64,000 nucleotides of DNA, from NCBI GenBank assembly GCA_032718475.1, contig JAUCBJ010008172.1:1-64000 (forward strand), in the 5' to 3' direction. Source of the stretch: Nemertoderma westbladi (lineage: Eukaryota; Animalia; Xenacoelomorpha). The notes beneath the pieces are model-generated. The model worked only from the letters and a program-made list of their open reading frames with translations, had not been told where the DNA came from and ran no database searches. Positions 3,156-55,124 of this stretch are shown here, piece by piece. Every line of letters starts with the position of its first letter. The first letter of the stretch is position 1. Both the position numbers and the translations under genes were made by a program.

Positions 3156-4367
3156 ATTAAATAAATTCAAAATGTTTAATTTGCTGCAATTGTCATATTC
3201 AGATATTGTATCACCTCAGCCTACAGCAGTACAGCAGTACAGTAAATAGGCCCTACTGAAATAGGCACAGCCAACAGCGACAGCACCGTTTCGTGATCAG
3301 AGAGTTAGACAGCAGCAGTGAGCAGCGCACAGCGGTCACAGTCAGGTGTATGGTGGCTCATGGCAGCATGGTCTGATGGAGGCCAACTGAAAAAAATATA
3401 TGTGGCACCCATGGTCCACACTTATAATTATGCCTAAGTCATTCGTGGATCATGGAGGCCACCTATAAAAATATAGGCCTACTTAGCTTGAGCTTCTACG
3501 GTTAAAATAATAAACAAGTACCGGTAACATATTTAATATTGTAGTAATAAATTGTATTGGCACTCACGGGCCAGTGTTACCTACATATTACAAAAACATA
3601 GGTGGCCCATGCCCATGGAGGCCAACTCCATAGAAAAGCATTAGTCTTGGCCCATGAAGGCAATCATGGCCGGAATTTTAAAACCACACTAGCTGACTGC
3701 ACTATACTTTCATTTCTGTCTACCTGTACCGGTAGGGTTGACTATTCAAATTCCGGACAAAATTTCATTTTTTTTTTAATTTGGGACACTTTAAATTGCT
3801 TAATTCTTGATATTATGTTTGCATCTGTACAAGGTGCTATTGTAGTTCATTATAAGATCAAATTGTCACCACGCAGTTCAACTGTTTAGTTGTAACTGGG
3901 TGGTTTTCATTTTATAAATTGACTGTCCGGAATTTGACTACCTGGTAAAATACCGGACATGTATATAATTCCGGACATGCCTTTTATTAGATGTGAGAGT
4001 TTATGTGAGGGTTGATATTAGGCCTATTTTAATAATTAAATTAAACTTTATTTCCATTAGTTTAGGTATCTGGGTGCTGTATTACATACAGCCATATACA
4101 GTATTCTACTCCTGTACTCAGTTCTGAAGTTATGCAATGCTTTGTGTTTTGCATATCCAGCCCAGATAGGGGGTGGGGGACTTTCAATTCAACGCAATAA
4201 TAATGCATGCATCCCTCTCCATGAAATTCGACACAAATAACAGTTTGATTACTCCCATAAATAAAACTATAACCTGTTTTATTGTGTTCCATTTATTGTT
4301 TTCGTTAGAAATACGTGTCACTATATCCTGCTCATTTGACATTTCCCTAAATTGGGAATTTAACATT

Positions 4368-5027
4368 TGTTCGCGCTTTTAGACCCTTTAGCAGTTTAAC
4401 CTGCCGATTTAAATGTCCTTTTAATTATAAATCGACTTTTGCCCTTACCAATTACCTGGTGTACTGAAGTTACATCCGCCGAAGGCAGTCCGTGCGCGGC
4501 GTATGACCCACGGTGTGGGAGACTGGATTCGGGTTCCGGAGGAAGTATTGCGGTGTAGGCTACTTTGTATCATTCGATTGATCTTCTACTATATAATCTC
4601 CGACAACTATATTTACTTTCGGGGAAATATTAACCGTTAGTTCCTTTGGGGCGTGGCGCTTTAAGTATAAAACAGAGTTATGACTTACACTAATCACAAC
4701 TACAGTAGATGGCTATAGAATCTCGTAAATAGCGCATTCTTTAGGAGATGCTTTATTAACCTTCACACTACTAGGATTCTCAGAAAAACTATAACTGCGC
4801 ATGCACCAATTTCCACAGGTCTCTATTGGCATAAGTGGGAAGATTCCTCTGATTGGCTGAAATATGCCCAAACAAAGAAACCTCCACGTACACAAAGAAT
4901 CAGCTGACAGATTTCGTCATCTTGGTTCTAATTTCTGACCGACGCGTAGTTGAACAATTTTTGGCCTTTTTAGAGTATTCAGCGCATTGCGTAAAAATGA
5001 CTCATTATGTCCGCAAAAGCTTTTACA
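4368..5027 (-). mobile_element. Solo LTR (660 bp) related to the LTRs of the RT-less Bel/Pao family at 21925 and 53869
   Basis: Termini TGTTCGCGCTTTT...CAAAAGCTTTTACA are shared with those LTRs, as are internal blocks (GTTTAACCTGCC, ATATAATCTC, GCATTCTTTAGGAGATGCTTT). 5-bp TSD ACATT at 4363-4367 and 5028-5032. Confidence 0.9.
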
Positions 5028-5142: not shown

Positions 5143-5460
5143 AGTAGTATGATAAACAGCTGAAATAAAACAGCGTCTGCCATAGTCTACCATGTTAAAG
5201 AATTTGCCGAACGGCTCTTGCCCCGCCTACTTACTATGATTACCATTGTGTATATGTAACATATGTCACCACTGTGTATATGTGACATATGTGGTATAAG
5301 GCCAGTCCGCAGACGGAAGTAATTTAATTAATTCGTGTCTACCGGTTGGCGTTTGACCTTGAACCGCAATAGGTAAAACCCAATATCGCTAAGCAACAAG
5401 TTGTGGGGCGAGCCGCGAATTGGGTGTAAGGTTATAGTATTTATAATATTATTTTTAATT
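5143..5460 (+). mobile_element. Polinton/Maverick-like left terminus (AGTAGT...)
   Basis: Begins AGTAGTATGATAAACAGC, and its reverse complement recurs ending at 52551. AGT(AGT) ends are characteristic of Polinton TIRs. Contains GC-box and CGGAAGT motifs. Confidence 0.65.
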
Positions 5461-5515
5461 TGATTATTATACTTAAATCCATCACCATTACTATTTTAAA
5501 ATTTCTCCCACCACC

Positions 5516-5965
5516 TCACCCACTTATTCCACTATCGTCATCTACCCAATCTTCTTCTTCATCCTCCACATCATCACCTTCACCACCACCACCCAACATC
5601 CCCAACATTCCCCGCAACATTTCGATTTCCCCCTCCATTGCATTCTCCCGCGCACATCTCTCCGCCTCCCGCGCTCTCCTATCCCCCTCCGCCTCCATCT
5701 CCAACGTCCAATCTTCCCCCCACGCGCTGTTCTTTCTCGCCTCTTCTTCCAAATAATGCTTCTTCTCTATCTCCTCCCACTCGTTTCTTGGATTTAATAA
5801 CCTCTCCAACCGCGCTTCTTCTTTCTCCCTCGCATACATAGCCACCAATATTTCTTCATTCTCCGTCGCTATTTCAGCCGCCACATCCTCATCTTCCTCC
5901 TCTTCCACCTCTTCCTCCACATCCATATCCACCTCATCCACCACAAGCTCATTTTCCCCCAACAT
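5516..5965 (-). CDS. Acidic low-complexity ORF of the Polinton-like arm
   Basis: 149-aa Glu/Asp-rich ORF. Homologous pieces occur in the opposite arm at ~49820-49926 (GMLG...EDW.DGDSGISG*) and 51980-52140. Confidence 0.5.
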   Translation of the reverse strand: MLGENELVVDEVDMDVEEEVEEEEDEDVAAEIATENEEILVAMYAREKEEARLERLLNPRNEWEEIEKKHYLEEEARKNSAWGEDWTLEMEAEGDRRAREAERCARENAMEGEIEMLRGMLGMLGGGGEGDDVEDEEEDWVDDDSGISG

Positions 5966-6204
5966 ATCCGCGTATAATAAATAAAATAAAGTAATAAATA
6001 AATAAATATGTGTATAATAATGTATAATACTATAAATAAATAAATTTATATAATATTTATTTCCATCGATAATTCATTATACCAACAAATAATTTACCAC
6101 CACAAAATAATAATAATAATAATTTAACCGTGCCCAGCTCGTTGCAGCGACACCGCCTACGAACATCGTCTATTTATATAATAAAGTTTCTACCGCTCGA
6201 AGAT

Positions 6205-6726
6205 TCACACTGAATGTTTAATCTTCTTTATTTGAGGTTGCCCATTAGTCTCGATTTCATTGAAAATGTCTTCACCATCATCCGTATCATTGACGATGTC
6301 CTCTTCAAAGTCGCTGATATCTTCATACTCATAGCTAGGTGTTTTATTCACGATGAGATCAATTTTTCGCTTAAGCGCTTGTTCTTTCATGGCTTTAGGT
6401 GTTTTCATCTTCATCTGAGCGCTCACACCCCCAACGAGGGTATCAATATCCTTATAATCATTCTTTTTTTCAGCGCCGTCTACCCGTTCATTTTCTGCAA
6501 TCGCGGGCAACCAGATTTTTTTCTCATCCATTTTCTTAGCAGTGACTTTTACTGCTTCGGACGTCTTCAGCTGACTAGCGTTGTTCGGCATTACCACTTT
6601 CATTAGTTCCTCATCCACTAATTCATCAATCGCAGCCTCAACAACTAACTTTTTAATCGGTAGAAACTCACACCCAGACGGAATATCGTGGTCTGCGTAC
6701 TTCTGTAATTGCTTAATTATCTTGAC
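6205..6726 (-). pseudogene. C-terminal third of ORF X copy A (tandem PC4-like ssDNA-binding protein, acidic tail), split by insertions
   Basis: KIIKQLQKYADHDIP... continues the frame broken at 20883 (FIPRNNTNV|KIIK) and is colinear with the uninterrupted copy at 48286-49401. Confidence 0.8.
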
Positions 6727-7275
6727 TGTTAGCTTATTCAATTCCGCTAACACAAACCCATAAAGTCAACCATTAAGCAATATTGGGGGCCACGAGATTG
6801 GGTAACCAACAACTCGTGTCACCCCAACAAAGTGGGAAGGAGAACCACACAATAAGGGTCAGGGGCCAAACCCCTAACAGAGGGAGAATAGCTGGAGTGA
6901 GCGGAAACACTCCAAAGGGCGCCAACAGGGACATTAGCCAATCAGAGGGGGGAAAGGCATCGGTTAGGTACAGTAACAAGGCCAACCCGTGCAATATAAC
7001 CAATTGGCAGTAATCATCTCATTCAGTTATCTCAGTGTTATTGGTGTTACAGTAGCAATAGTTTAGCTAGGGAAGTACCGGGATTTCAATTACCGTTTCC
7101 CGCCTTCCGTGTACAACAACGTATTATCAGTTATCTCATTACCAGTTATCTATATCTATATATACCCGAATATTATACACGACGAATAACGCAAACTCTT
7201 TCACCTTTCACACACGGCGGGGACGCGTGAATTGACAAACCGGATAAACCGGGATCCTTCCAGGATCCCGTCACA
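6727..7275 (+). repeat. 5' LTR (549 bp)
   Basis: TGTTAGC...GTCACA. About 7 substitutions versus the 3' LTR by eye. CCAAT box ~6938, TATA-like AATATAA ~6993, Inr-like TCAGTT ~7023. Confidence 0.97.
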
Positions 7276-7526
7276 GTAATTGAATCAGAGCTGCCGCCCT
7301 AGTTGAACTCAGTGACTACCAGCCACCAATCTGTAGAAGAGAGATGAGTCAGTCAGGAGAGACGACACCGACGCGGACCCCGGACGAAGAACTAACGATC
7401 CGTGAGGCCGCGACCAGACGGTATAGGCCCACGACGCCGGACCCATCGGTAACGGGTGATCCGGCAGTTCGGGACTAGGGGGGCCGTCTGGAGCCAGAGG
7501 TCGAGTCGAGAGGAGGGGGAGTCGAG

Positions 7527-10500
7527 TTGAGAGACCGAGAGGGTGAGTTGGAAGGAGAAGGAGACGAGTCGACACGGAACGAGGGTCGACGTACCGATGT
7601 CGCCGGCCAGCCACAGGCCGAGGGCGACGGACGGCCCACCGGAACGGCGACGGTGGGGCCGCCGGTACGACGTCGGACCCGGAGAGACGGAGGAGAGGTC
7701 AGCAACGAGGACGTCGGGGTTTCTGATCGACTTCGACGGGCCTACAACGCGACCCGGAAGCTACTAAAGGAGGCCAAGAAGGGGGCGGAGATAGATGAGA
7801 TGAAGTTAACGAGAGGACTAGGTGAGTCGAATAGACATTTTAGCTATCTAATGCGTTTCGGGCAGAGGGAACTGGCCAAGGAGAGAGCGAGAGGGGTTGC
7901 AGAGGAACTGTGTGATTTATGGCGGTGTAGGGGTATGCAACCTAGTGCAGTGTATGTAGGGCCATACTTAGTCGATGCCCAGGGTGTAAAATTTGAGGGT
8001 TGGAGGAGACCTGAGGAGGGCGAATCCGAGGTTGAGCCCAAGGATTCGATCTCGTCGGTCGGGGGAAGTTCTGGGAAGAGGGGGAAAGCTAGCAGGTCGG
8101 GAAGGCGGAGGGAATCCGTCGTAACCGATAAGTCTGCTACATCCTCCGTGAAAGAAAGACGGGTGAGAGAGATAAATGCCACGTACCATCTCGACCTGAT
8201 AGAACAAGGTCAGAGAGAGTTAAATAGACGGTTAGAGGAGGGGAGAATACAACTAGAGAGGGAAGCGGTACTGATTAGAGAAACCAGGGAGAGGGCCGAG
8301 AAGGCCGTGGAAAGCCTTAAAGAGTGTGAGGAAATAGAAGGAGGGAACAAGAGGAGCGTGTGGCGAGAGAGAAAAGTGAACGCAAAGAGCGTGAGGCAGA
8401 ACGCAAGGAACGTGAGGCGAGAGAGGAAAAGGAACGCAAGGAACGTGAGGCGAGAGAGGAAAAGGAACGCAAGGAACGTTAGGCGAGAGAGGAAAAGGAA
8501 CGCAAGGAACGTGAGGCGAGAGAGGAAAGTGTGCGTAGAGAGCGTGAGGCGAGACGAAGGGAGCGAGCTAAGAGAGAGGCGGAATTGGCCGACCAGAACG
8601 CACGAGAGGATCGGGAGAGAGTAGCAAGAGAGGAGCGTGTGCGAGAGAAATTGGAAAGAGAGCAAAAGGAGCTTATAGAGTACAAAGCTAGACGCACGCG
8701 CGAACTAGAATTGGCGCGGATAGGGGCGTCTGAGAGCGGGACTGGCTCGAATATTTTCGAGGAGCCAAGGGCCGTGGATACATTTATTTATGCCCCACTT
8801 ACAGGGACCGCACGACAGACACAAAACTGGTGTGACCGTACGGGCGGGGGGGGGGGGGGGGGGGGGTAATAATAATGCTACTGTAGACGACGTTAATATT
8901 AATGGTACCGTATCGGATAATCCTAACCAAACTTATATTGCAGGAAATACTTTGCCTGGTAGTAGTAATTTGAATTTAAATACAGATAGCCTAAATAATA
9001 ATTTTGATTTAAACGTGCAAAATAATCCGAATAATAATTTAAATTTAGAAAATAATAATAACTCAAATAATTTAAATAATAATCCAAGCCCAAATTTACA
9101 AAATAATTCAAATAACGTAGTCGCGCAAAATAATCCAAATGATTCTATTTCGAACGAACAAAATAATTCCGTTTCTAATATAGGTGCTATTAACGCGAAC
9201 GCGTCGAACGTGTATGAGCCGACAGACGGCGGCATGGTAGGCCACGTAGTTAGGAGACAGGAGGTGGCGGGGTTGAGTCGACCCGACGGTGGCCTGGTAG
9301 GCCACGTAGTTAGTAGGCAGGAGGTGGCGGGGTTGAGTCGACCCGACGGTGGCCTGGTAGGCCACGTAGTTAGTAGGCAGGAGGTGGTGGGGTTGAGCCA
9401 ACCCGGAGTAGGCCCGATAGGCCAAGTAGTAGTGGAGAGAGAGGCAGGGGTAAGCGAACCCAGCCGCTGTAGAAATATTGTGTCGACTGGAGGGGGTGTA
9501 GAAGAGAAGTTAGAGGTAGCGGTGTGATATGTGGCGAGGGGGGGGGGCTACAGGATCCCCACAACGAGGAGTTAGTGGCGAGAGGGGGGGGCAGAGAGTG
9601 TCCCACAGCCGTCAGCGGATAATGCGCGGGCCGAATCAGGTAAACCGCAACACCCGGCGACGGAGAGTAATAGGGGGATTGCGAGTATCCCCAGCGGCGT
9701 GCGATCGAGCAGAGAGAAGCAGGTTGACGTCGCGAGAGGGCGGACGAAGCGTCGAGCCCGATCAGAAGAGGGAAGAAGAACAGTGGAGTTTAACCGGGAG
9801 GTCGACGAGAGATCTCACGAGCGGGAATACTGCACTGAGAGGAGAAGAAGAGAAGACAGCAGAAGGAGTATCGCCACGAACGACAGGAGAGCGAGGACGA
9901 ATAGCGAGCCGTTGGTGGTGGAGATGGAAAGGGAGAGTCGGTGGGGTCGAACTTCGGGAGATTGCCGTCGTCCCGGAGAGACATGACCTAACGAGACGCG
10001 TTACGCGTCAAGAGAGGGGTACGCGATGTACCGGCACATAGACGAGAGTAGTAGAGAGGGTCGAAGAGAAACTTTCCGACGGGATATACCTACGGATTGA
10101 GAGTACGGTAACCGCGGGGAGGATTATTCGAGAAGAATAAACTTCGATCCCGAGCAATACATACAGACTGTAGGACATACTGTAGGCCTTACTGCACATA
10201 CCATAGGCCATGCTGACAGGAATAATGTAGGCGATAGGATAGCGCGGACGATGGAACTAAACCCGGACGTCGCGGAGTACATACCGGCAGGTAGGCCAGA
10301 AGCTGATAGGCCTATACTGGCACCAGTGCAGCAGTATGACTACAGCACGAAAGGATATAACATATACCCAGGGGAGGGGGGAATTATTGCGGATAGATGC
10401 ATGGGCCCCAATATATTAACATCAACCCCAATACCAAACATACCGGTGGGGGGGGGGGGGGGGGGGCAGGGTGACATTCCCCCATCGCAATATCAACAAT

Positions 10501-11760
10501 ATGCCCCGATAGGAGCAAGGACAACGATAACATTGGATGAAAATAGGTCGTGTGACACAGAAATATGGAGGGGGTTGCTACCCCCAATGATATACCCAAG
10601 CCAAAGAAAGGCAGAAAATAGAACGAGCGGACCGCACCCAACAGGAGAAACTATACAACATCCATCGAATCCATTGGAAGCGCAGGCGATGGGGATGGCC
10701 ACATTGATCGATGCATTAAAAACAAGGATCGAATTACCACCCGTGGAACCATTCAAATTCGATGGGAGTAGGCCGGAAGAATATCTCCAGTTTCGGCGTA
10801 TGTATAGCAATGAAATACTAACAAAGAACTTAACGCAGGCGGAGTGCCTAAAGTATTTGCAAGTATACATAGGAGGCCCAGCATACGACATTGTGAGGCA
10901 ATATCAGGGCATATAGGGCGGCTTCACGACGGCATGGCGGGCACTGGACAGGGAATACGGGCACCCGGCCAAGATCATCAGGCAGACCCTGAGAGGCATA
11001 ACATCGGGTGGCCTACAGGATAATCCCGTTAGCATTAAGACATTTGCGAACAAGGTCGACAAGGCGCTGATCGTGTTAAAGACGCTAGACGCGCCATACG
11101 AACTCAACGTGTCCAACAACATCACCACGATAGCGCAGGCACTACCGATGTGGTTGCGCAACAAGTGGAGGAAAATCGCTTTCTCCACTCGAGATAGGAA
11201 GGGTGCGGAACCGGGTTTAGAAGAAATGTCGAGCTTCTTAAACTACGAAGCTGAACTAATAACCGACCCAGTCTATAGCGAAGATAGCCTGGGGAAGGGA
11301 TCGAAGCCGGATTACCATAGACCGAAACCAGAGCACAATACAGGCTCAGGCAATCACTGCCATATGCAGCGACGCAGGGGACTGCAAGTCCACAGGTAGC
11401 CGAAAGTAAGACCACACCATGGAACGGACAGGGGAACAATAACAACACGAATAAATATAACCCCAGTACGTCCAGTAGGCCGAACCCAAACAATAAGAAT
11501 AGTAGGGACTTTGGTACAAACGCAGCTGCGATACGCGATGCACTGTATAAGGAGGGCTACAACCCAAAGAGCAAATGCCAGCTACATACAAATGCGCTTC
11601 ATCAAACCATGAACTGCAGGTACTGGCAAGCGCTACCTAGGGAAGATCAGATAGATTACGCGAGGAAGAATGAGATCTGCCCGCGATGTGTGATGAGTGG
11701 ACACAGAGCTAGGCAATGCAAGGAGACGCCGGTCAAGTTCGGTCAAAGGAAAGGCCAAAC
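7527..11760 (+). pseudogene. gag: Bel/Pao gag, unusually long and broken by frameshifts and stops
   Basis: ORF pieces 7527-8624, 8531-8869, 8790-9527, 9529-10041, 10251-10916, 11073-11399, 11609-. Bel gag core LPPVEPFKFDGSRPEEY; knuckle CPRCVMSGHRARQC; internal 33-bp and 60-bp tandem repeats and an Asn-rich tract. Confidence 0.85.
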
Positions 11761-11789
11761 GATGGCAACGAGCACAGTAGGGGCGAAAA

Positions 11790-14700
11790 AGAGAGGAACG
11801 GTGCTACTTGGGGTAGTACCCGTGCGAGTGATTGGAGAAGGCAATCGATCAGTAACCACGCTAATGCTGGTTGATAGTGGAGCTGCCTTCACACTAGTCG
11901 AGGATTGGGTGGCCGAAGAAATATGATTGAGAACGAGGCCAAGCAGAATGGCGGTAACAACCATCTCCAGTAAAGATGAGGTCCTGGAGATGAGAACCGG
12001 ACGGTGCACCATCGCAGCAATAGCACCAGGATGCGACTATGGGGCGAGCATCGACCCCATCCAAGTGATAGAGTCAATAAACATCAATGCCAGACGGCCA
12101 ACCAACATCGAGGTCGAACAATATAAATTTCTGGACGATATTGACTTCTCAATCCCAGATGTGGACGTTAGGAAGGTATCCATCATAGTAGGAATGGACT
12201 GCCCAACGGCCCACGAAAGAATGCAAACGGTCTTCGGCGAAGACAATGCAGTATGACCCGGTGGCGATACTGACACCATTCGGGTGGACGCTAAGTGGCC
12301 CAATCAAGAGCAAGATACCATTTAGGATGTCGGAGACATCAGGATGCATGTTCGCGGGAACTATGCAGGAAATGAGTGATGAGAGAGCAGAGGAGCAACT
12401 TAAAAGACTGCTCAGACAGGATTTTGAAGGATTAAAGGAGACCGGGGTCGGGACCTCGGTGGAAGACAAACAGGCTCAGCAGAGCGTAGAGGAGTCTATG
12501 AAGTGCAACGAGGGGCGGTACACCATAGGAATGGTATGGAAACTACCGAAGTTACCACTGCCCGATAATAGAGGGATGGTACTCAGGAGACTCCGCAAGC
12601 TGAAACAAACACTAAAACGGAGCCCCGAGAAGAATGAGTACATCCACAGAACGATTAAGAAGTACGTCGAGAAAGGATGGGCCGTGGAGTTACCAGTCGA
12701 CGAACCAAACACGGACAGGACATATTACCTGCCACTCCACGTGGCTTTAGACCCAAAGAAAGGTAAACTGCGGATGGTAGTTGACGCATCGGCAAAGACC
12801 AACGGAAAATGCTTAAACGACTATCTGTTAGAAGGTCCAAACATAAACAACTCGGGCATAGAGGTCCTACTTAGATTTAGGAATGGGAAACACGCCTTCA
12901 CGTATGACATAGAAGGCATGTTCAACCAAGTCCGTGTAACGGAGGAAGATAGCGACAGTCAACGCTTCTTATGGTATAACGGCGAGGAAGAACCGTCGAT
13001 AATACCAGCGTACAAGATGGTAGTACAGAACATGGGAGCCAAGTCGTCTTCGTTTACGACCACTATGGCAGTGAGAGATACAGTGAAGGGAAAGGAAGAT
13101 AGATACAGCACTAGGGCCGTCGATATGATTCGACGCGGCTTCTACGTAGATGACGGAATGGAGTCTGGAAATACGGTTAAGGAGATACTGGACACAGGGC
13201 GCGAGGTTCGCGACATCCTAAAAGGATCCGGCTTTAACCTGACCAAATTCCAATCCAGTTCGGAGGAATTTATCAAGGTGATAGAGGACAAGAGACCAGA
13301 ATCGACCATGGATAATCCCACAACAGCCAAAGGGCAGGACATGGCGAACAAGAGAACAGAATCTCAACAGAAGGCATTGGGAATCGTGTGGAACAGAGAG
13401 ACAGATGAACTGAAGTATCAGCTGAGCCAGGAGGGCGCAGACATCCACACGAAGAGGGGCTATGTGTCGTATATAGCAAGGATATACGATCCCCTAGGTC
13501 TAGCATCCCCATTATTAGTCACGGGGAAACAGATACTCAAGAGAGTATACAAATTGAAGGATGAGTGGGACGTAGAGGTACCAGAGGAAATCAAGAAACA
13601 GTGGAGTAAGTGGACAGGAGACTTGGAGAAGATAGGAACATATAACATGCCACGAGTGTATTTCCCGGATGGGAACATGACGAATCTGGACCTACACATG
13701 TTCTCCGATGCGTCGTTGGAGCCGTACGGAGCGGCACTCTATTTAGTACAACGAGAGGGGGCTCACAAGCCCAGACTGGCCTTTAGCAAAGCAAAGTCAA
13801 CGCCGCCAGATTCAGCATCAGTTCCCAAATTAGAATTGACAGCTGCGAGACTAGGAGTTAGAGCCACAGCCTACCTAGTGGATACTATTCCCAACATAGT
13901 GGAGACACACTACTGGACGGACTCCATGGTAGTGCTTGGTTGGCTACATAACGAAAGGACGAGATACCCAATATTCGTCGCGAATAGGGTGGACGAGATA
14001 AGGGAGACCACAGAATTGGAAAGGTGGCACTACTGCCCAACGGACGAGAACCCAGCGGACTTGTTATCAAGGGGCGTGGCACGCCACACTTTCTTAAAAA
14101 AGGAAGCATTGTGGCAACACGGGCCGCAGTTTCTGAGCGACAAGGAGGCCTGGCCGCCGATGAGAAAGGTGGACCCGGACTCAGGAGAGGTAGTGTCAGA
14201 AGGAGAAGAGGGAGATTCAGAGGGAGAAGAGATATACTCCCAGATGGTGAGGGAGATAAGGGACGTGCAACCTAAACCAGAAGAACTGTGCGATAACCCG
14301 ACAGATAAACTCCTCAGCTACAGCTCTAGTTGGTATAAGACCAAGAAATTAGTGGCATACTGGAGAGCCTTCGGGAATTTCCTCGCGGGAGTTGGCAAAG
14401 ACAAGAAGATCAGGACAACCATAGATCTGGAAGGAGCGGCCAAGGCAGTCATCCACTATGTACAACGGAAGAACTATGGCGACGAGGTGGAACGCGTCGG
14501 TAACCAACAGCACCTTCGACGGGACAGCGAGCTGATCACGCTGTCGCCACAACTTAATGACGACGGGATTCTAGTAATGAATTCTAGGGTGGGATACAAC
14601 AACAGCATAGTCGTACCACCGAAACCCATCATCATTCCCACAGGATCGCCAATAGTCCACCAGATTATCTGGGACTCCCATAAGTCGATATTGCACGGGG

Positions 14701-15788
14701 GCACCAACCGAACCTTCACGGAGATAAGGAGGACCTTTTGGGTCAAGCAGTTGAGGAAGAAGGTAAAAGCGGTAGTGGGGCAGTGCCAGACCTGCTGACG
14801 AGCGAAGAAGGAGCGAGCCATACAAGAGATGGCACCACTACCAGCGAGTACAGTAAGACAGCACGACCCGCCATTTACACATTGCAGTGTGGACATGTTC
14901 GGGCCAATAAAGATCAAGGTGATGCGGCACACGGAGAAACGCTACGGTATTATCTTCGTATGTAACAACACGCGGGCGGTAGGGATAGAACTCGCCCAAG
15001 ATGCAACCGCATCAGCATTTATTAATGCATTAGAAAGATTCAGAGACCGCAAAGGTGGGACGATCGCAGTAATGTATTCCGACAGCGGAACCAACTTTGT
15101 GGGAGCAGAGAACGAGATGGCAGAGGCCTTGGACATCTTGGAAGGGGAGGAAGTCAGGGCGGCCATGAGACGACGACAAGTAAAGTGGGAGAGAAGGACG
15201 CCGTATGCACCACATACACTAGGATGCGTCGAGAGACTGGTGGGCAGTTCAAAGCGTCTGATGGCGAAGCTGATGAACACCCACATGGTCACTGAGGACG
15301 TCTTAAGGACAGTGCTTGCGAAGTGCGAGGGTATCATTAATAGCAGACCGCTATATCCGGAGAATGATGACCCTGAATCATTAGATGTGCTGACACCCAG
15401 CCATTTTCTAATGGAAAGGCCAGCGACCATCGATATGCGGGGTGTAGACCCAGATGACATACATTCCCGCCAGAGTTGGAAGGTCGCTAAAGCAATAAGC
15501 GCAGAGTATTGGAGGAGGTGGGTTGAGGAATACCTACCCACGCTTCATAAAAGAAGCAAGTGGAGGAAGTCAAATAGGGAGTTAAGAGAGGGAGATCTCG
15601 TAATCGTTACGGATGATACTATCATCAACAACCAGTGGCGGTTGGCGAGAGTCGTAGGCACTTACTCCGATGAGGACGGAAGAGTCCGATCGGTAGAAGT
15701 GCGGATAGGTGGAAAGATCGGTGCGAAAGACAGGAAAACCTACAGGAGAGCTGTAGGGAAATGCTGTCTATTAGAAGGGGCACCTTAG
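11790..15788 (+). pseudogene. pol: Bel/Pao pol: aspartic protease, RT, RNase H, integrase (in-frame stops at 11924 and 14796, frameshift ~12250)
   Basis: LVDSGA (protease); YYLPLH, RMVVDAS, DIEGMF, YVDD (RT); FSDAS, PKLEL, WTDS, NPADLLSRG (Pao RNase H/connection); HHCC, DMFGP, SDSGTNF, ERLVG (integrase). Confidence 0.95.
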
Positions 15789-15894
15789 GGTGGAGTTAGA
15801 GTGTAGTTTAGTCGTCCAAGTTTGGACTGAGGGGGGTGGGATTGAGGGCGAGACGCCCTTCCCACACATAAAAATGAAAAATAAAATAAATAAA

Positions 15895-16640
15895 AATTAG
15901 AGTTAGTTAGTTAGGAGTTAGTTAGAAGGTACGTAGTACCTAGAGTTAGTCGGTTAGAAGGTACGTAGTACCTAGAGTTAGTTAGTTAGTCAGTTAGAAG
16001 GTACGTAGTTCCTAGAGTTAGTTAGTTAGTTAGTTAGTCAGTTAGAAGGTACGTAGTACCTAGAGTTAGTTAGTTAGAGAGTTAGTAAGAGTTAGAGGGT
16101 ACGTAGTACCGATAGTTAGTGGAGTTAGGAGTAGTAAGAGGGTACGTAGTACCGTTAGTTAGAGAGTTAGTAAGAGTTAGAGGGTACGTAGTACCGATAG
16201 TTAGTGGAGTTAGAGGTTAGTAAGAGGGTACGTAGTACCGATAGTTAGTGGAGTTAGGAGTAGTAAGAGGGTATGTAGTACCGATAGTTAGTGGAGTTAG
16301 AGGTTAGTAAGAGGGTACGTAGTACCGATAGTTAGTGGAGTTAGAGGTTAGTAAGAGGGTATGTAGTACTGATAGTTAGTGGAGTTAGAGGTTAGTAAGA
16401 GGGTACGTAGTACCGATTAGTAAGAGTAGAGTTGGAAGTTAGTAAGAGGGTACGTAGTACCGTTAGTGGAGTTAGAGAGTAGTAAGAGGGTACGTAGTAC
16501 CGTTAGTAGAGTTAGAGTAAGAGTTAGAGGGTACGTAGTACCGTTAGTTAGTTAGTTAGAGAGTAGTAAGAGGGTATGTAGTACCGATTAGTAAGAGATA
16601 GAGGTGGAAGGGTATACATAGTATAGATATTAGTTAGTAG
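15895..16640 (+). repeat. Array of ~16 GGTAYGTAGTACC mini-hairpins separated by variable GTTAG/GAG-rich linkers
   Basis: Motif counted about 16 times at ~32-50 nt spacing between pol and the extra ORF. Stem GGTAC/GTACC with GTA loop. Confidence 0.9.
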
Positions 16641-17067
16641 TTAGTAGCGAGAGGGGGGCATATGAGTACAGTTGGGTAGATCGTGTAGGCCACGCGACAT
16701 ATACTGCTGTACTGCACAGGCCCATAGCGTAGGTCAGAATGTGGATTATGAAATAGAATAATCCATAAGCAGTAAATAGTAGAAATAGATTAGAAATAAA
16801 AATAGAATAAATAGGGCTAAGAAAATTACAAATGATGGTAACAGGAGGAAAATTATTCTGGAACATAATTAAAGCAACGGACAGAAATTGCAAATAGGGT
16901 ACATTTGTTAGCTACAAAATTAAGTAATAGAAATTAGGCTAAAAGGGCGTAGTTAGATAGAAAATAGGCCATTATCGGACCGTACAGACCATCCTAACTG
17001 CATCACTCACTTATATTGCGCCTTGGTAAGGCACCACCTTATAGGTGAGCGATCGGAGGAGTTCGAA

Positions 17068-19632
17068 ATGGCGGGAAAACTGATCAGAAAGAGAAAGGCG
17101 GAGTCAGGAGGAAAGGAGATACTGGTGGATTTCACCGAGAGGCATCCGGAAGAGAAGACGAGAGGATACTACGAGAGGTTGGAAAAGGGTCACGCGGCAC
17201 GAGCGCTGCAGGACCACTTCCGGGAGATGCACGAACAGCGGCTGGTCGGGACCTACGGGACGCCGTCGCTGGACAACGCGATCTTCCAACACTTCCACTA
17301 CGTGGTGAAAGGGGACGAGGCGAAGTTCGGGATTCCGAAGTACCCGAGGGAGTCACCGAGGAAGGATTGGAAGAGATTCATAGAGTCCGTCAACAGGGGA
17401 GGATATATGATCCTAGACGACGAGGGAACCGTGGAAGACGAGGAGGGTTCGAGACGAGGATCAGCGGGGTCGGCCAGGACCATACTCTTACATTTGGCTG
17501 CGCCAAATGGGGACATTTTCTTATTCGATCTAGGAACGTATGGGAAGAAAGAGGGGCCGAAATTAAACTGGTTGCCGAAAGCGGTGCAAGTCTTGGTAAG
17601 AGAGAAGTCGACGACGAAGGTGGGATCGGCGATTCGCGAGGACGCGGAGAGAATCATCGGTCCGGACGCCACCAACCTCCTGGATATGCAGAAGGTCTTC
17701 ATGGCTATGACGGCACCAGATGGGTTGTGGGTAGTCGGGAACACAGGCCAATGCGGGGCGGTGGCAATGGGCCAGCTATTGGGGCTCGTATGCCACAAAC
17801 CGATGGACTGGGGGAAGTTCAGGGAGGAATACGGAGCAGAACTAGCGAACTCGCTAAAGTGGGGAGCGAGACCGGGAAAGCAAGAGGTATATCAATTCCA
17901 CAGAGGAGCGATAAAGGTATATCAGAAGCGATATATCCTGCAGGAAGATTGGATGATGATAAGTTTACTTAACTTATTCATGACCGTGGTTATCGAGAGG
18001 GAACCAGCGGCATTTCTGTTATCGGGATCACCCCTAAGCTACAGGAGAGCCTTTAAGACGGCCTTCGACGGTCTGGTAGACCACCCGGGGCTGAAGGGCG
18101 AGTCGGTGTACTACAATAGCCGACATCTGATAGACGGGGAGACAGATACGCCGTATCAGAGATGGGAGCAGCTAGAGACGGATAGACGAGAGGCAAAGCG
18201 ACTGGAAGAAGTCGCTAGACGGGAGAGGATAGAAGCAGAGGAGAGGGAGGAGGAGGCCAGGACGCAGAGTTACGGCTTCGAGGAACAGGCAGGCTTAGAC
18301 GAACTTCGTTGGACTTCATCAGGGAGTTCGGGGGAGTCTCTAGGGCGAGAACTGGGATGGACGGTGGGATCGCCGAAACAGTCGACGTCGGGGTTGCAAG
18401 CGATGCCCATACCAGCGGGCGCCGAAGGCGACCAACCGCCAAGGAAGTTAAGGGAGCTAGAGGGATGGAGATCTACGGGCGAGAGCCAAGGCGGGAAGGG
18501 ACATAGTGGATCCATCGGGATACCGGGGTTGGAGCCACTGCCAGAGGAGGAGGAAGACGACGACGAGTTCGGAGAGGTGCCGCCCATCGAGAGGATTGGC
18601 CACTCGGACACGGACTGGGTTGGCGGGAGGGTGGTGACGGCCAGTGGGGCGAGGGCCTTCTGGGATAGACCCGGCAAGCGGGCCTGGGTGCACGAGGAGC
18701 CGGCGATGGATTTCGCGGGGAGCACTATCAGGTTGGGCGAGCAACCAGGGACGGCACCACGGGTAGTATTCGGGGAGACGATGCCCGAGAGGGGCGAGGA
18801 GATCGACATAGACAGGGACACTAACGTGCAGAAGTTCGCCTACCAGCGACTCCACAGACTGCGGAGATTGCTTGGGACGAAAGACGATGTGGGGTGGGAG
18901 ACATTGGTACTCGGTTGCGACTACTGTGGGAGACAGACCCACCAGGAAAGGAGCTGTTTGTACCTGTTCCAAAAGGGAACCTTTTGTCTCTACTGCCGCG
19001 AGTCGAGCCACAGGATGGGGGCGTGTCCACGGTTGCATAACCGATGTCCGAAGTGCAACTTTCGGGGACACTACGGATGCCAGTGCGACTGGATGGATGA
19101 CGAAGAGAAGTTCAGAAGATTCGAGGAGTGGGCCGACGTCGGGGCCATGACGCGCCAGCGCATGAAGGCCCAGGAGTTCAAGTGGGGTTTCTTCCTCATC
19201 AATCAGGAGGCTCACATGGAAATCATAAAGCGGAGGCTACCGTTTACCTATCAAGAGGTAGCAACGGCGGCGTCGTATGCCGGGGTGATGAATACACAAA
19301 GGTATTTGGACAGGTGGACGCCACAGAACCGAGGGGAGTTTAGGGATTTCCTGGCAGAGCACGTGCCGCGGGCAATGAAGATGATCATATGGGACGCCAC
19401 CAGGGGGAGACAACAGGGCCACTTGGAGGGGCCACCCGCGAAGCGATATCGGGAGCTGATAACACCAACACCCAGGGAGCCAACGACCGGGATCAGTAAG
19501 GAGGTGGTGGCGAGGGTCCGAAGACAGAAAGCGGATCCCAGAGGAGCGGTAGTGACCAGGAAACGACCCAGGGAGGAGGACGGCAAAAGGAAAGACTTGA
19601 GGTGGTTCCCAAAGTCAGGGGGGATGAACTGA
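17068..19632 (+). CDS. Extra ORF: DEDDy-type (WRN/EXD2/RNase D-like) 3'-5' exonuclease domain, acidic linker, three CCHC zinc knuckles, basic tail
   Basis: Open frame 17023-19632, first ATG 17068. ExoI ILDDEG (~17410-17427), LLHLA..IFLFDL, LPKAVQVLVREKSTTKVGSAIREDAERI (ExoII), NLLDM, ExoIII-like QKRYILQED. CX2CX4HX4C at 18916-18957, 18985-19026 and 19045-19086. Confidence 0.8.
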   Translation: MAGKLIRKRKAESGGKEILVDFTERHPEEKTRGYYERLEKGHAARALQDHFREMHEQRLVGTYGTPSLDNAIFQHFHYVVKGDEAKFGIPKYPRESPRKDWKRFIESVNRGGYMILDDEGTVEDEEGSRRGSAGSARTILLHLAAPNGDIFLFDLGTYGKKEGPKLNWLPKAVQVLVREKSTTKVGSAIREDAERIIGPDATNLLDMQKVFMAMTAPDGLWVVGNTGQCGAVAMGQLLGLVCHKPMDWGKFREEYGAELANSLKWGARPGKQEVYQFHRGAIKVYQKRYILQEDWMMISLLNLFMTVVIEREPAAFLLSGSPLSYRRAFKTAFDGLVDHPGLKGESVYYNSRHLIDGETDTPYQRWEQLETDRREAKRLEEVARRERIEAEEREEEARTQSYGFEEQAGLDELRWTSSGSSGESLGRELGWTVGSPKQSTSGLQAMPIPAGAEGDQPPRKLRELEGWRSTGESQGGKGHSGSIGIPGLEPLPEEEEDDDEFGEVPPIERIGHSDTDWVGGRVVTASGARAFWDRPGKRAWVHEEPAMDFAGSTIRLGEQPGTAPRVVFGETMPERGEEIDIDRDTNVQKFAYQRLHRLRRLLGTKDDVGWETLVLGCDYCGRQTHQERSCLYLFQKGTFCLYCRESSHRMGACPRLHNRCPKCNFRGHYGCQCDWMDDEEKFRRFEEWADVGAMTRQRMKAQEFKWGFFLINQEAHMEIIKRRLPFTYQEVATAASYAGVMNTQRYLDRWTPQNRGEFRDFLAEHVPRAMKMIIWDATRGRQQGHLEGPPAKRYRELITPTPREPTTGISKEVVARVRRQKADPRGAVVTRKRPREEDGKRKDLRWFPKSGGMN

Positions 19633-20295
19633 GACTTCAATGTGGTACGCCTGGAAGGCGCCACGTGGGACTTACAAACTATTAAGTACAAATTCAAACT
19701 GATGCAAATAATTAAATAAGTGCAATTATATGTACGTACGTAGTAATCAGTAGTTTAGCAATGAAATATACGTTCGAAGTAAGTACTATAGTCATTCAAC
19801 CTTTCTCAATTAGCTACTGGGACTGGGGGGCTAACTGACTATGGTACTATGGACGAGACACCAGACGACTTCACATTTCTTGAGTACGACGGCACAAAGG
19901 GGGAGTGAGATTCGTCAGAAGGGATGGGGTAGTCAAAGGGAGGTCGAGTAGAGGTGATAGTGCAGAGTGCAGAGAGAGTGCGAATACAATTCAAGTGTGT
20001 GGGAGGAATAAGAGGCTGAGTAAGGGACAGGGAAGTCCGAGAGTTAAGCGGTAGTGAGGAGAAGTAGAGGAGAGTCAGGGTGGGAGCAGAGTGGAGTTAA
20101 AGTGGCGAAGTGTTGGGGAAACAAAAGTCGTGTGAGGAGCGCACGATCGGCCCGACATGGGACGCCAGGCGAAACGGGTAGCGATATCATACCCATAGGG
20201 AGCGGCCTGGAAAGCCGGCTCCGAAAGAAAATAGTTCCACCCCACACCCGATAATAGATCGGGATCCAGCGGAATTGTAGCGCACTTTAAGGTGG

Positions 20296-20333
20296 ATGCT
20301 ATCTTCTCACCGGGAAGATAGCATGGGGGGGAG
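20296..20333 (+). promoter_or_regulatory. Hairpin plus polypurine tract (plus-strand primer)
   Basis: ATGCTATCTTC-N7-GAAGATAGCAT (20296-20324), then GGGGGGGAG (20325-20333) abutting the 3' LTR. Confidence 0.85.
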
Positions 20334-20882
20334 TGTTAGCTTATTCAATTCAGCTAACACAAACCCATAAAGTCAACCGTTAAGCAATATTGGGGGCCAC
20401 GAGATTGGGTAACCAACAACTCGTGTCACCCCAACAAAGTGGGAAGGAGAACCACACAATAAGGGTCAGGGGCCAAACCCCTAACAGAGGGAGAATAGCT
20501 GGAGTGAACGGAAACACTCCAAAGGGCGCCAACAGGGACATTAGCCAATCAGAGGGGGGAAAGGCATCGGTTAGGTACAGTAACAAGGCCAACCCGTGCA
20601 ATATAACCAGTTGGCAGTAATCATCTCATTCAGTTATCTCAGTGTTATTGGTGTTACAGTAGCAATAGTTTAGCTAGGGAAGTACAGGGATTTCAATTAC
20701 CGTTTCCCGCCTTCCGTGTACAACAACGTATTATCAGTTATCTCATTACCAGTTATCTATATCTATATATACCCGAATGTTATACACGACGAATAACGCA
20801 AACTCTTTCACCTTTCACACACGGCGGGGACGCGTGAATTGACAAACCGGATAAACCGGGATCCTTCCTGGATCCCGTCACA
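20334..20882 (+). repeat. 3' LTR (549 bp)
   Basis: Direct repeat of 6727-7275, followed by TSD TTGAC. Confidence 0.97.
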
Positions 20883-20887
20883 TTGAC

Positions 20888-21477
20888 ATTTGTGTTGTTT
20901 CGAGGGATGAAAATAACCTTGGTGTCGAAGTTGTGGGACAAATATATCCCGTTTTTGTTAACGGTTGATGTGTACCTCATACTAACCTCATCGATATTCT
21001 CGTTAACATTCTTATCTATGTTAAAGTCGAGCAAACAGAATTCATCCACTCTGAGATTCAACCCATCGTAATATAGAACACCCTTCCGCTGTCTACCTAT
21101 ATCATCCGCTTCCCAAACGCCGACAAATCGTTGCCCTTCAAAGTCGTAGATATATTCAATGTACCCACAATCTTCGAACTCCATAAAATTCTCATCATGA
21201 ATTTCCTTCTTTTTTGGTTCAATACGGGAAAGAACGACTTTGCTGTAGATGCTTTGTAAGACAGCTAGAATTTTTCGCGAGATAAAAATTGATGCGCCGT
21301 TTTTCCCAATGCGTAAGTACGCATGATTTATTGGTGTTATAAGCAAATTGCCTCGGGTGTATTCCTTGTAATATTCAACGGCTATTTTATTATAATTGAG
21401 GAAGTCAAACAGGAATCTTATGTTCTGGTAAGTAAGACTTACCGATTCTTGCACGACATTGCGTCCTTTGGTATCAC
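20888..21477 (-). pseudogene. Middle part of ORF X copy A
   Basis: KGRNVVQESVSLTY...FIPRNNTNV is colinear with 48478-49060 and bounded by the RTE and Bel insertions. Confidence 0.85.
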
Positions 21478-21924: not shown

Positions 21925-23085
21925 TGTTTGCGCTTTTAAGACCTTTGACAGTTTAACCTGCCAAATTAGGATGTCTTTTGGATGATATATATTCTTTAGC
22001 TTATGACGAGTATTTGATACACTACATTAGCCGAAGCCAGTCTATGCGCAATCATTCACCCGCTGGATATACCCGGGAGACTGAATTCGGAGCTTAATGA
22101 TTGATGGTGTAAGCCTACCGTATTATTCGACTGATCGTAATATATAATCTCTGACAAATATTATTCACTTTCGGGAAATATTAACAGTTCCTTTAGGACG
22201 TGGCGCTCTAAATATATAAACAGAGTTATGGCTTAAACTAGACACAACGAAAAGGCTATAGATTTACGTATATGGCGCATTCTTTAGGAGATGCTTTGTT
22301 ATCAGTTACAATCATACACAATGCTGCACAATACTGCACACTAATCTGCCGACCTTCACTAAATTTGGTCACGTATAAAGAGAGCAATATATGTCGGGCA
22401 TATGAAATAGCATTAGATTCACTTCAAACCACTTAACATAGGTCGCAATCGTTTATTTGTAACCGGTCTCTCTAACCTTTAGTATATCAAGAAGGTGGGG
22501 TATCTGACTATTGATCAGTATTCCGATATAATATTTCATCAACCAATATAATGAATAATCGACAGTAAAAGCAGTAATATTAGTAAGATATGGTAAGTAA
22601 GTAAGATATGAATTGCATAGAATTGGTTTGATAAGATTGATAACAGATATACGTTCTATAATTAAGCCTACTAATGTAAAGCTAAAGAATGCTGATATAC
22701 GGAGGTGCCAAAAGCCGATGTTCTTAGGCTCTGGGCAAAAACATAACACTGAACTACTGAGTTCTGTATCCACCTCCAACACAGAGACAAAAAACGCTCT
22801 GATTGGTCAACCGAACAACGAGAGAACAAAGAAACAAAGAAATGTCGACGTGGCAATATCAGCTGTTAGCCGTCGTCATGGTAGCGACACTGTTTTCAAG
22901 AGTATCGAGCTTATTGCGTCCCGAAATTGCGGATTATGTCCTCTAAAGTACAAATACAGAAGAAATGGCTTTTATGTCCTCTAAAACACCAGTACAGTAA
23001 GGACACGGCCTTTTTATGCCCAGTAAACCAACTACAGAGTACTTTACGGGTAAAATAACCAGCTAATTACGCAAAAGCTTTTACA
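21925..23085 (-). repeat. 3' LTR (1161 bp) of the RT-less element
   Basis: Near-identical to 33315-34488 apart from 7-bp and 6-bp indels and a few substitutions. Confidence 0.95.
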
Positions 23086-23111
23086 CCGCTCCCAGAAAAT
23101 GGGATTTAAGT

Positions 23112-23448: not shown

Positions 23449-23555
23449 AATCGAACTGAGATAAAGACAATTCGTTTATCGCTTGGACTTGCTGTTACAA
23501 CTTACGTTTATCTGAACAAACGCAGGTTTCCTTTCTGATCTTTGTAGAATAGCGT

Positions 23556-33040: not shown

Positions 33041-33314
33041 ACAATCTGAGCAGGCTTACACGCCTTCTGCTCAATACTGGCCTACAAATAAATAAAACTG
33101 ACAGAAATAGGCCTAAGTAAAATCCCAATAAAAACCAGGCGTCCCCGATTAATTATTAAGACCTACCGGTATATAATAATCAAATCGAATAATACTGCTG
33201 TACCTGCTGTAAGTACCGGTTCGGATGATCAGGCAGTCAGGCCTACAGGTTTCCGGTCGACCGGTACTTTCGACTAGATTGCTTACACCGCAATCCAGAA
33301 GCAATATCTGTTAT

Positions 33315-34488
33315 TGTTTGCGCTTTTAAGACCTTTGACAGTTTAACCTGCCAAATTAGGATGTCTTTTGGATGATATATATTCTTTAGCTTATGACGAG
33401 TATTTGATACACTACATTAGCCGAAGCCAGTCTATGCGCAATCATTCACCCGCTGGATATACCCGGGAGACTGAATTCGGAGCTTAATGATTGATGGTGT
33501 AAGCCTACCGTATTATTCGACTGATCGTAATATATAATCTCTGACAAATATTATTCACTTTCGGGAAATATTAACAGTTCCTTTAGGACGTGGCGCTCTA
33601 AATATATAAACAGAGTTATGGCTTAAACTAGATACAACGAAAAGGCTATAGATTTACGTATATGGCGCATTCTTTAGGAGATGCTTTGTTATCAGTTACA
33701 ATCATACACAATGCTGCACAATACTGCACACTAATCTGCCGACCTTCACTAAATTTGGTCACGTATAAAGAGAGCAATATACAATTTATGTCGGGCATAT
33801 GAAATAGCATTAGATTCACTTCAAACCACTTAACATAGGTCGCAATCGTTTATTTGTAACCGGTCTCTCTAACCTTTAGTATATCAAGAAGGTGGGGTAT
33901 CTGACTATTGATCAGTATTCCGATATAATATTTCATCAACCAATATAATGAATAATCGACAGTAAAAGCAGTAATATTAGTAAGATATGGTAAGTAAGTA
34001 AGATATGAATTGCATAGAATTGGTTTGATAAGATTGATAACAGATATACGTTCTATAATTAAGATTAAGCCTACTAGTGTAAAGCTAAAGAATGCTGATA
34101 TACGGAGGTGCCAAAAGCCGATGTTCTTAGGCTCTGGGCAAAAACATAACACTGAACTACTGAGTTCTGTATCCACCTCCAACACAGAGACAAAAAACGC
34201 TCTGATTGGTCAACCGAACAACGAGAGAACAAAGAAACAAAGAAATGTCGACGTGGCAATATCAGCTGTTAGCCGTCGTCATGGTAGCGACACTGTTTTC
34301 AAGAGTATCGAGCTTATTGCGTCCCGAAATTGCGGATTATGTCCTCTAAAGTACAAATACAGAAGAAATGGCTTTTATGTCCTCTAAAACACCAGTACAG
34401 TAAGGACACGGCCTTTTTATGCCCAGTAAACCAACTACAGAGTACTTTACGGGGAAAATAACCGGCTAATTACGCAAAAGCTTTTACA
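33315..34488 (-). repeat. 5' LTR (1174 bp) of the RT-less element
   Basis: Minus strand reads TGTAAAAG...GCGCAAACA; direct repeat of 21925-23085. Confidence 0.95.
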
Positions 34489-35186: not shown

Positions 35187-35269
35187 AACTGTGTAGCTTC
35201 TTAGAAGTTTCATAATTTTAAGCATGAGCGAATTTAATTTAATGTTGGCATCGCAAACTTTCTCTCCCG

Positions 35270-52246: not shown

Positions 52247-52269
52247 AGACACAAACGTCTGCAACCCAC

Positions 52270-53868: not shown

Positions 53869-55124
53869 TGTTCGCGCTTTTAAGACCTTTGGCAGTTTAA
53901 CCAGCCAAATCTATATGTCTTCTAGGTTATAAATCTACTCCAGCCTATGACAAGTATTGAACACCTATAATAATTCTAACATTAGCCAAAGCCAGTCTGT
54001 GCGCGACCATTCACCCGCTGGATATACCCGGTAGACTGGATTTGGATGCTTTAATTTGATTGCGGTGCAGGCCTACCGTACTATTCGATTGATAGTTAAT
54101 ATATAATCTCTGACAAATATTATTCACTTTCGGGAAATATTAGCAGTTCCTTTAGGATGTGGCGCTCTATCTATTTAAACAGAGCTATGTCTTACACTAT
54201 ACACAACAGTATGTCTTATAGATCACCAAAGTGCATTCTTTAGGAAATGCTTTGTTACTCGGTCAAGCACACACAGACTATTGCACACAACTGCACACTG
54301 AATTGCCGACATTCACTGATTTTAATCATATATAAAGAGAATAACAACCGACATTTGTAGGGCCTATTAAGTAGCATTGAACTCACTACAAACCACGATA
54401 ATGTATGTCGCAAATTGTTATATGTAACCGGTCTCTCTAACCTTAGTGTATCAAGAAGATTGGGTTTTCGGATCGTTATCAATATTCTTCCCAATAATAA
54501 TATGTAAACGAACGATACAATTAACAACACAGTAAATAGCAGTAAATAATGCGGCGAAAAGCAGTTTACGTCAGGGTGCTTAATCAGATGCCGAGGTGCT
54601 GTACCAAAACCGAGTTAACCGAGACCGAGACCGAGTTGACCAAGATAACAGTTTGATGATCTTATAATTAAAGACGCTCTAATGTCAGAAAACATTCCCC
54701 GGCCGGTGTTCTAGGCGTGGGGGAAACGTCCGTACTGAATCCTGTAATTCTGCTGTACAGCTTTTACACAAAGAGGGAATCTCTGATTGGTCGAATGACA
54801 AAAAGCTCCACATGGATACAGCTGATAGATGTCGTCATTTTGAGCTGAGCAGAACAAAGAACCAAGGCAAGGCTCCGGGCAAGCTACACGTGTAAAGCTC
54901 AGCCATTAGCTGTCGTCATAGTAACGACACTGTTTCAAGAGGATCTAGGGCGTTGCGTCATAGAATTGCTAATCATGTCCTCTAAAGTACACATACAGAA
55001 TAAATAACTTTTATGTCCCCTAAAAACACCGGTACAGCAATGACACGGCCTTTTATGCCTGCTAAACCAACTACAGAGTACTTTACGGGGAAAATAACCG
55101 GTCAATTCCGCAAAAGCTTTTACA
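53869..55124 (-). repeat. 3' LTR (1256 bp) with a diverged central part
   Basis: TGTTCGCGCTTT...CAAAAGCTTTTACA termini; both ends align to 21925-23085. Confidence 0.9.

Follow-up and report, generated by a model that had tools for sequence, protein, structure and literature searches.

How does an LTR retrotransposon begin its minus-strand DNA when the leader behind its 5′ LTR shows no site for a tRNA? The question is raised by a Bel/Pao-type element, here called element A, in a 64,000-nucleotide stretch of DNA from Nemertoderma westbladi (assembly GCA_032718475.1, contig JAUCBJ010008172.1, positions 1 to 64,000), which is referred to below as the window. The priming of Bel/Pao elements by tRNA is assumed rather than shown in the ICTV text (PMC8742986). 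A sequence-only reading of the window had proposed that the leader of element A pairs with its own LTR and that the element represents a self-priming, Tf1-like lineage of Bel/Pao. This proposal is examined here in element A itself, in two further elements of the window, in read contigs and in distant metagenome relatives.

Element A as a Bel/Pao retrotransposon

Element A lies on the forward strand between a 5′ LTR at 6727..7275 (549 bp, TGT...ACA) and a 3′ LTR at 20334..20882, which are 98.55% identical over 552 aligned bases. It is flanked by a 5-bp target-site duplication, TTGAC (left copy 6722..6726, right copy 20883-20887), and a polypurine tract (20325..20333) stands directly before the 3′ LTR. 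Since the duplication and the purine tract bound the element, the end of the 5′ LTR at 7275 is fixed independently of any pairing. The gag-pol region (7344..15788, first ATG at 7344) contains stops and frame changes in this copy, and these interrupted reading frames mark the copy as defective. Its pol part carries a reverse transcriptase (RT) YVDD motif at 13143, RNase H-type motifs at 13701-14060 and integrase core motifs at 14889-15240, which we take to be the catalytic motifs of the three enzymes. A Pfam search returned Peptidase_A17 (E 4.7e-40) and DUF5641 (E 2.5e-25), together with weaker matches to DUF1759, RVT_1 and rve that fall below their own Pfam cut-offs. An integrase zinc domain follows the RNase H, which gives the Pao-type RT-RH-IN order with the family domains present, and PF05380 was found in all of the top 120 listed homologues. 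The Bel/Pao hallmarks, namely paired TG...CA LTRs, target duplication and purine tract, are all present as well. Collectively, these features assign element A, as a defective copy, to the Bel/Pao LTR retrotransposons. Family membership is defined here by pol, and a tRNA primer-binding site (PBS) is treated as a described trait of Bel/Pao.

The length of element A, 14.2 kb, includes an extra ORF downstream of the integrase (16957..19632, forward strand, 891 aa from stop to stop). The N-terminal part of this ORF was assigned by a language model, with a score of 0.92, to an Atlas cluster of 3′-5′ exonucleases (PF01612), a family annotated on 50% of the cluster members. Pfam, PDB and two protein searches returned no homologues of the ORF, nor was a sequence homologue found among 1.84 billion representatives, and its single-sequence fold reached a pLDDT of 33, so that the exonuclease likeness is a lead only, without alignment support. 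In the C-terminal part, several Cys/His knuckle-like motifs can be seen by eye. A tandem array of 43-44 bp units occupies 15900-16640 in the 3′ untranslated region, behind pol and ahead of the extra ORF. The element itself interrupts a different repeat, which carries acidic ORFs and of which further inverted copies exist in the window (5143-6726, 20883-21470, 48477-49708 and 51000-52551). A separate tandem and inverted array with units of about 460-1235 bp lies at 35269-37764 of the window.

Pairing between the LTR and the leader of element A

The position at which a tRNA-type PBS would be expected, 7276..7284, reads GTAATTGAA and shows no TGG. It is the exact complement of TTCAATTAC at 7085..7093 in the 5′ LTR, as could be seen again in the letters, and the same 9-nt arm is present in the 3′ LTR. 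The candidate primer would end at C7093, which stands opposite G7276, the first base outside the LTR. The absence of TGG extends further than this position, because the trinucleotide does not occur anywhere in 7276-7350, nor before the first ATG at 7344, and thus a tRNA-type 18-nt PBS of the kind in the ICTV description was not found in 7276-7350. A second helix, also put forward by the sequence-only reading, joins 7060..7072, upstream of the primer arm, to 7297..7309. It was recovered with all of its 13 bp, including the G-U pairs T7064-G7305 and G7066-T7303, at a pairing probability of 0.99 in folds that begin at the predicted RNA start. One antidiagonal contains both the 9-bp and the 13-bp helix (7060+7309 = 7093+7276).

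Dinucleotide shuffling of the LTR produced the 9-nt match in 123 of 20000 cases, or in 318 of 20000 when offsets of 0-3 were allowed, and a 9-nt complement in the LTR exists at 29 of 13049 internal positions of the element. The match is above chance but modest, and it concerns a single copy chosen post hoc. Beyond leader position 11, the same diagonal holds 14 Watson-Crick (WC) pairs among 29 positions, compared with 5-10 on twelve diagonals shifted by 1-6 bases, and this level was reached in 501 of 100000 shuffles.

The position of the arm within the RNA could be estimated from a predicted promoter (6938..7036), with CCAAT at 6938, TATAA at 6995 and initiator-like TCAGT at 7023 and 7032. Presuming that these motifs act as a promoter, transcription would start at A7025, 30 nt after the TATA motif. 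The arm then begins 60 nt after this motif-predicted start and ends at about nucleotide 69 of the RNA. There is no AATAAA in the LTR of element A; the priming route proposed below needs a poly(A) site downstream of 7093. The initiator itself offers another possible arm, 7021-7030, with 10 bp of which two are G-U pairs; it was rejected because it begins upstream of the predicted start and is weaker. Primers built by splicing were likewise rejected for element A and for element B described below, because the best match over any GT/GC-AG pair gives 5 WC pairs in A and 8 in B, fewer than the contiguous 9 and 11.

The equilibrium fold of element A disfavours the 9-bp primer helix (p 0.001, +4.6 kcal/mol), and the arm prefers a partner in U5 at 7230..7235 (p 0.85). 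When the primer helix is forced, at a cost of 4.6 kcal/mol, it grows to 11 bp by pairing 7082-7083 with 7285-7286 and bulging 7084, and it joins two other structures at the predicted cut. These are an R-U5 stem directly 3′ of the cut (7097..7223, formed by 7097-7104 with 7216-7223, p 0.88) and a U5 terminal hairpin (7250..7270) that adjoins the LTR end. In addition, 7027-7033 at the predicted 5′ end of the RNA pairs with 7341-7347 and thereby covers the first ATG (p 0.97), which might provide a switch between translation and replication. Rfam, searched at E up to 5 over 6600-21000, returned five sub-threshold snoRNA matches, none of them in the LTR or leader.

The LTR and leader of family A are covered deeply by contigs of four runs, from which variants were taken in 40 of 445 rows. 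An A at 7305, which makes a WC pair in helix 2, holds the majority of the contig depth (X1 5630/6598). A G at 7089 is also common (depth 6432/19984 in X1, 4495/12088 in X2, 699/15209 in X3 and 106/106 in X5), and it would turn one pair of the primer helix into G-U. No PBS change that compensates G7089 was seen among these 40 of 445 variant rows. Without a matching change, the G7089 variant is hard to reconcile with a strictly templated transfer of the primer sequence into the PBS, unless the change is found in the remaining rows, and it is the main point against templated copying that is left unexplained in family A.

The pairing register in other families

A second Bel/Pao-type family, element B, lies on the reverse strand of the same window. 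It was identified after the self-pairing hypothesis had been stated. Its 5′ LTR occupies 33315..34488 and its 3′ LTR 21925-23085, with the target duplication GACTC. An 11-nt arm at 34037..34047 (LTR positions 442-452) finds its perfect complement at 33304..33314, immediately next to the LTR end. Complementarity of 11 nt at offset 0 was reached in 33 of 20000 shuffles and at 4 of 10205 internal positions. The diagonal beyond +11 has 21 WC pairs among 39 positions, compared with 5-14 at shifted diagonals (10 of 100000 shuffles); in both A and B the excess of pairs past position +11 is confined to shift 0. The LTR of B is unrelated to that of A, with zero matches in a BLAST search, and the similarity of their Gag proteins is weak (22% over 120 aa). 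As in element A, the equilibrium fold of B disfavours the primer helix, here by +7.3 to +10.0 kcal/mol. Pairing of the 5′ end of B through LTR positions 328-343, in two 6-bp blocks, appeared in one of six folds (p 0.76). An AATAAA is found at LTR position 635, downstream of the arm.

Element C, a sister of B on the reverse strand, carries the corresponding arm in its 3′ LTR at 54645..54655 and differs from that of B at 3 of 11 positions; its own PBS falls beyond the window. B-like leader contigs, one each in X1, X2 and X3, begin with 11 bases that complement the arm of C at 11 of 11 positions. X1 and X3 are one sample, so that the three contigs represent two samples, and this stretch of the reads was chosen to look for a leader complementary to the arm of C, an expectation that was not written down beforehand. 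Relative to B, the leader shows three compensatory changes, which match the arm of C. Its LTR end is unlike that of C, which points to a sibling family, and the linkage between this leader and the arm stays putative. No substitutions at a frequency of at least 1% are listed inside the PBS of B. Of the five such substitutions listed further into the leader, one converts a mismatched position of the diagonal into a pair and another disrupts a G-U pair.

B (21925-34488) and C (53869-64000) both encode Gag, protease and, behind these, a short segment resembling the end of RNase H, and no RT was found in them; for the Gag-protease part of B, the domains recognized were DUF1759 and a weak protease match. 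The LTRs of B are 98.55% identical, and B and C would be a young non-autonomous family in need of a helper able to use its self-primer. Their U3 and U5 regions align and their R regions are unalike. A solo LTR at 4368-5027 (reverse strand, 660 bp, target duplication AATGT) has a B/C-like U3 and U5 and lacks the whole arm-bearing R segment; an 11-mer identical to the arm of C at 4237-4247, about 120 bases beyond this solo LTR, is probably there by chance. A degenerate pattern for the B/C/D LTR end matched nothing in the metagenomes. The insertion site of element B lies in a LINE-like RT fragment that is also present at 464-1018.

Distant relatives were sought in a metagenome scan with alignment A1, in which 78 loci were kept from the best 80 of 533 confirmed. 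They are 31-38% identical to element A, which sits on a long branch at about 35% identity to them in a FastTree phylogeny with a midpoint root and no named Bel/Pao references; kinship of the priming mechanism between element A and these relatives is assumed. No relative came to light in viral contigs. ARAGORN found no tRNA genes in the 78 loci or in the 64-kb window. Thirty-eight loci were inspected by eye and gave 27 curated rows, or 26 after L015, of the same family as L009, was dropped. The other 51 loci were excluded because their upstream sequence was too short, they were permuted, they duplicated a family or their boundary could not be placed. In four of the 26 (L009, L013, L017 and L055), the LTR boundary is fixed by the divergence of two LTRs. 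The other 22 boundaries were placed by eye from a terminal repeat or motif after ranking by complementarity, which is partly circular; four boundaries were moved by one base, and the donor pattern was widened after L046 and L067 had been missed, the wider pattern being used for the controls too.

All four independently bounded families pair over exactly 11 nt at offset 0. Pairing of at least 10 nt was found in 17 of the 26 curated loci, compared with 3 of 627 control ACA sites, and pairing of at least 11 nt in 15, compared with none of the 627; exactly 11 nt is seen in 13. The 17 scoring loci represent 15 distinct PBS sequences, and in 16 of the 17 loci the PBS starts with GT, a feature outside the score. 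A leader matched a foreign LTR over at least 9 nt in 7 of 289 pairs and its own in 17 of 17, the latter set being a selected one. Fourteen of the 17 reach the match only when the LTR is joined at an internal GT-AG junction, and it is contiguous in the other three, namely the intron-less 3′ LTR of L009, L042 and L051. In L009, an intron end is present in the 5′ LTR and none in the 3′ LTR, as expected from the copying of spliced RNA. Intron-less LTRs were observed at 6694-7103 of L009 and 6925-7206 of L007, whose sister copies (L015, and L010, L012 and L013, respectively) carry the intron. The primer helix is again off equilibrium in L042 and L051 (+9.5 and +8.7 kcal/mol), and no extension on the same antidiagonal was seen by eye in the metagenome relatives, so that this trait belongs to A and B only. 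Nine of the 26 loci score below 10 nt. Among these, L002, L003 and L014 have an LTR that is incomplete in the contig, yet display an exon end at a donor, as expected; L023, L029, L041 and L078 reach 7-9 nt; and L057 and L073 have whole LTRs yet fall below 10 nt, for which no explanation was found.

The comparison for compensatory changes across A, B and the relatives indicates that the families keep the pairing between LTR and PBS with other letters and in the same register. No TGG lies within 6 nt of the LTR end in any of the 27 curated rows. With the same-register pairing across families, this supports the suggestion of a self-priming Bel/Pao lineage.

Priming route, rival explanations and known systems

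Element A probably primes its minus-strand DNA in cis with a 5′ segment of its own transcript, a reading to which we give a probability of about 0.7, and it is very likely that its own arm is the primer by one route or another. All steps after the pairing are modelled on Tf1. Transcription would start near 7025, and the 5′ 70 nt would fold back on the leader with helix 2 as a clamp, Gag chaperone activity shifting the arm from its U5 partner (7230-7235) to the PBS. A cut in the RNA behind C7093, for which the RNase H of RT is the likeliest agent given the precedent of Tf1, would provide a 3′ end that RT would extend into U5, with 7025-7093 rebuilt from the 3′ LTR. Plus-strand synthesis would then copy the attached primer back into the PBS. 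Such copying could explain why the PBS tracks the arm by WC pairing in each family, splice junctions included. The pairing on the same antidiagonal in A and B could likewise be the worn relic of a read-through copy, which would imply primers of at least 34 nt in A and 49 nt in B. The unfavourable cis fold of the primer helix in A, B, L042 and L051 counts against spontaneous folding in cis. A further point against the reading is that the 9-nt match of element A, which reaches 11 only with a bulge, falls short of the 11 nt usual among relatives. We see even chances for a wider picture, in which a broad animal Bel/Pao branch swapped tRNA priming for a long, capped piece of the RNA 5′ end that terminates in an 11-nt arm. 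In many families this arm would be built by splicing out an LTR intron, the intron-less A and B would have a contiguous arm and a leader with the read-through copy of a long primer, and the exonuclease-like ORF of A might trim the primer end.

The arm might also act as primer from elsewhere, either as the R copy at the 3′ end of the genomic or a second packaged RNA, or as a fragment cut by a host or element nuclease and annealed in trans. Its presence in both LTRs of A is consistent with this, as are the AATAAA of B, which would put the arm at both RNA ends, the exonuclease-like ORF of A, and the energies, since pairing in cis is disfavoured at equilibrium and duplexes of isolated strands reach -30.7 (A) and -34.7 (B) kcal/mol. 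However, helix 2 and further colinear helices clamp the predicted 5′ end to the leader in cis with p 0.88-0.99, and the third ORF of B has zero similarity to the extra ORF of A. Only a few hundred bases separate pol from the purine tract in most relatives with the 3′ end present, which argues that an extra nuclease is not general. We consider supply of the arm from elsewhere unlikely.

A purely regulatory role of the helices, in packaging, translation or a dimer switch with the 5′ end over the gag ATG, would leave priming to another primer. The duplex that covers the ATG and the alternative U5 partner of the arm, as in a switch, would both suit such a role, which nevertheless leaves unaccounted the onset of pairing immediately behind the LTR end in A, B and all four bounded relatives, the preference for exactly 11 WC pairs and the fit to exon-exon junctions. 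It also supplies no other primer site and is judged improbable. Still less credit goes to priming by an internal or half fragment of a host tRNA, as in copia, Osser and Bianca, with the LTR match secondary or due to chance. Half-tRNA primers do exist in copia lineages, according to the accessible text of PMC6317226, and the match of element A alone has p of about 0.006. Half-tRNA lineages keep one primer type, whereas the 15 distinct PBS of the relatives and those of A and B fit their own LTR and rarely a foreign one.

If priming by the own 5′ RNA is correct, self-priming would also occur in a third LTR superfamily, with a new architecture of internal arm, upstream clamp helix and splice-built primer. 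It would bear on whether hairpin priming preceded tRNA priming, as is proposed in the accessible text of PMC3601003. Furthermore, it would account for elements annotated without a PBS, and such elements would presumably be independent of the tRNA supply and of interference by tRNA fragments. The self-priming reading also predicts an exact RNA cut site, 7093/7094.

To our knowledge, self-priming has been shown by experiment only in a yeast element. The Tf1 primer is described in the accessible text of PMC7175516 as the RNA's first 11 bases after RNase H cleavage. According to what is accessible of PMC11042837, the PBS at the cDNA end of Tf1 is copied from this primer; it starts with ATAAC, as does that of element B. 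Element A resembles Tf1/Tf2 of Schizosaccharomyces pombe, Tj1, Tosmo1-3 and the Tf1/sushi group of Ty3/gypsy, as far as these are covered in the accessible parts of PMC7175516, PMC4600332 and bioRxiv 10.1101/2022.12.06.519325, in the lack of a tRNA PBS, an LTR-derived complement, a duplex of typically 11 nt and a cut predicted at the duplex end. The LTR segment complementary to the bases right after the 5′ LTR measures 9 nt in A (11 with the bulge) and 11 nt in B. The likeness to Tf1 claimed by the sequence-only reading stands for the principle and the typical 11-nt length, but not for the architecture. The superfamily differs, predictions place the arm of A about 69 nt and that of B 117-125 nt into the transcript, and the arm is formed only by splicing in 14 of the 17 scoring relatives. 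Both flanking duplexes of the Tf1 'pretzel' use LTR sequence downstream of the primer (accessible text of bioRxiv 10.1101/2022.12.06.519325), whereas helix 2 of element A uses 7060-7072, upstream of the arm.

Self-priming has also been predicted for the copia TAR elements Houba and Osr-1 and for plant Tcn1 from a match of at least 10 nt between the LTR and the first leader bases (PMC6317226, accessible text); these belong to other superfamilies and hosts, and there too it is a prediction only. Element B passes this rule and element A is one base short of it. Belpaoviridae (Semotivirus) are described by the ICTV with an 18-nt PBS for tRNA-Arg or tRNA-Gly and genomes of 4.2-10 kb (PMC8742986). 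Element A shares with them the LTRs, the purine tract and gag followed by PR-RT-RH-IN with Peptidase_A17, DUF5641 and a weak DUF1759, and departs from them in lacking a tRNA PBS, in its 14.2 kb and in the extra ORF. The terms 'PBS' and 'tRNA' have no occurrences in the accessible text of the Sinbad paper (PMC554778) and the BEL/Pao survey (PMC3118150), and no report of self-priming or of a splice-built primer in Bel/Pao was found in a literature search that had Repbase and most subscription journals outside its scope. A downstream ORF with a likeness to 3′-5′ exonucleases, in element A a language-model lead, recalls the DEDDy exonuclease ORF3 downstream in the bdelloid LTR retrotransposons Juno and Vesta (PMC5408684, accessible text). 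Membership of element A in Tf1/sushi itself was rejected, as the Pfam domains are those of Bel/Pao and there is no chromodomain. Taken together, element A is a member of Bel/Pao that likely works like Tf1 in principle and stands outside the Tf1/sushi group.
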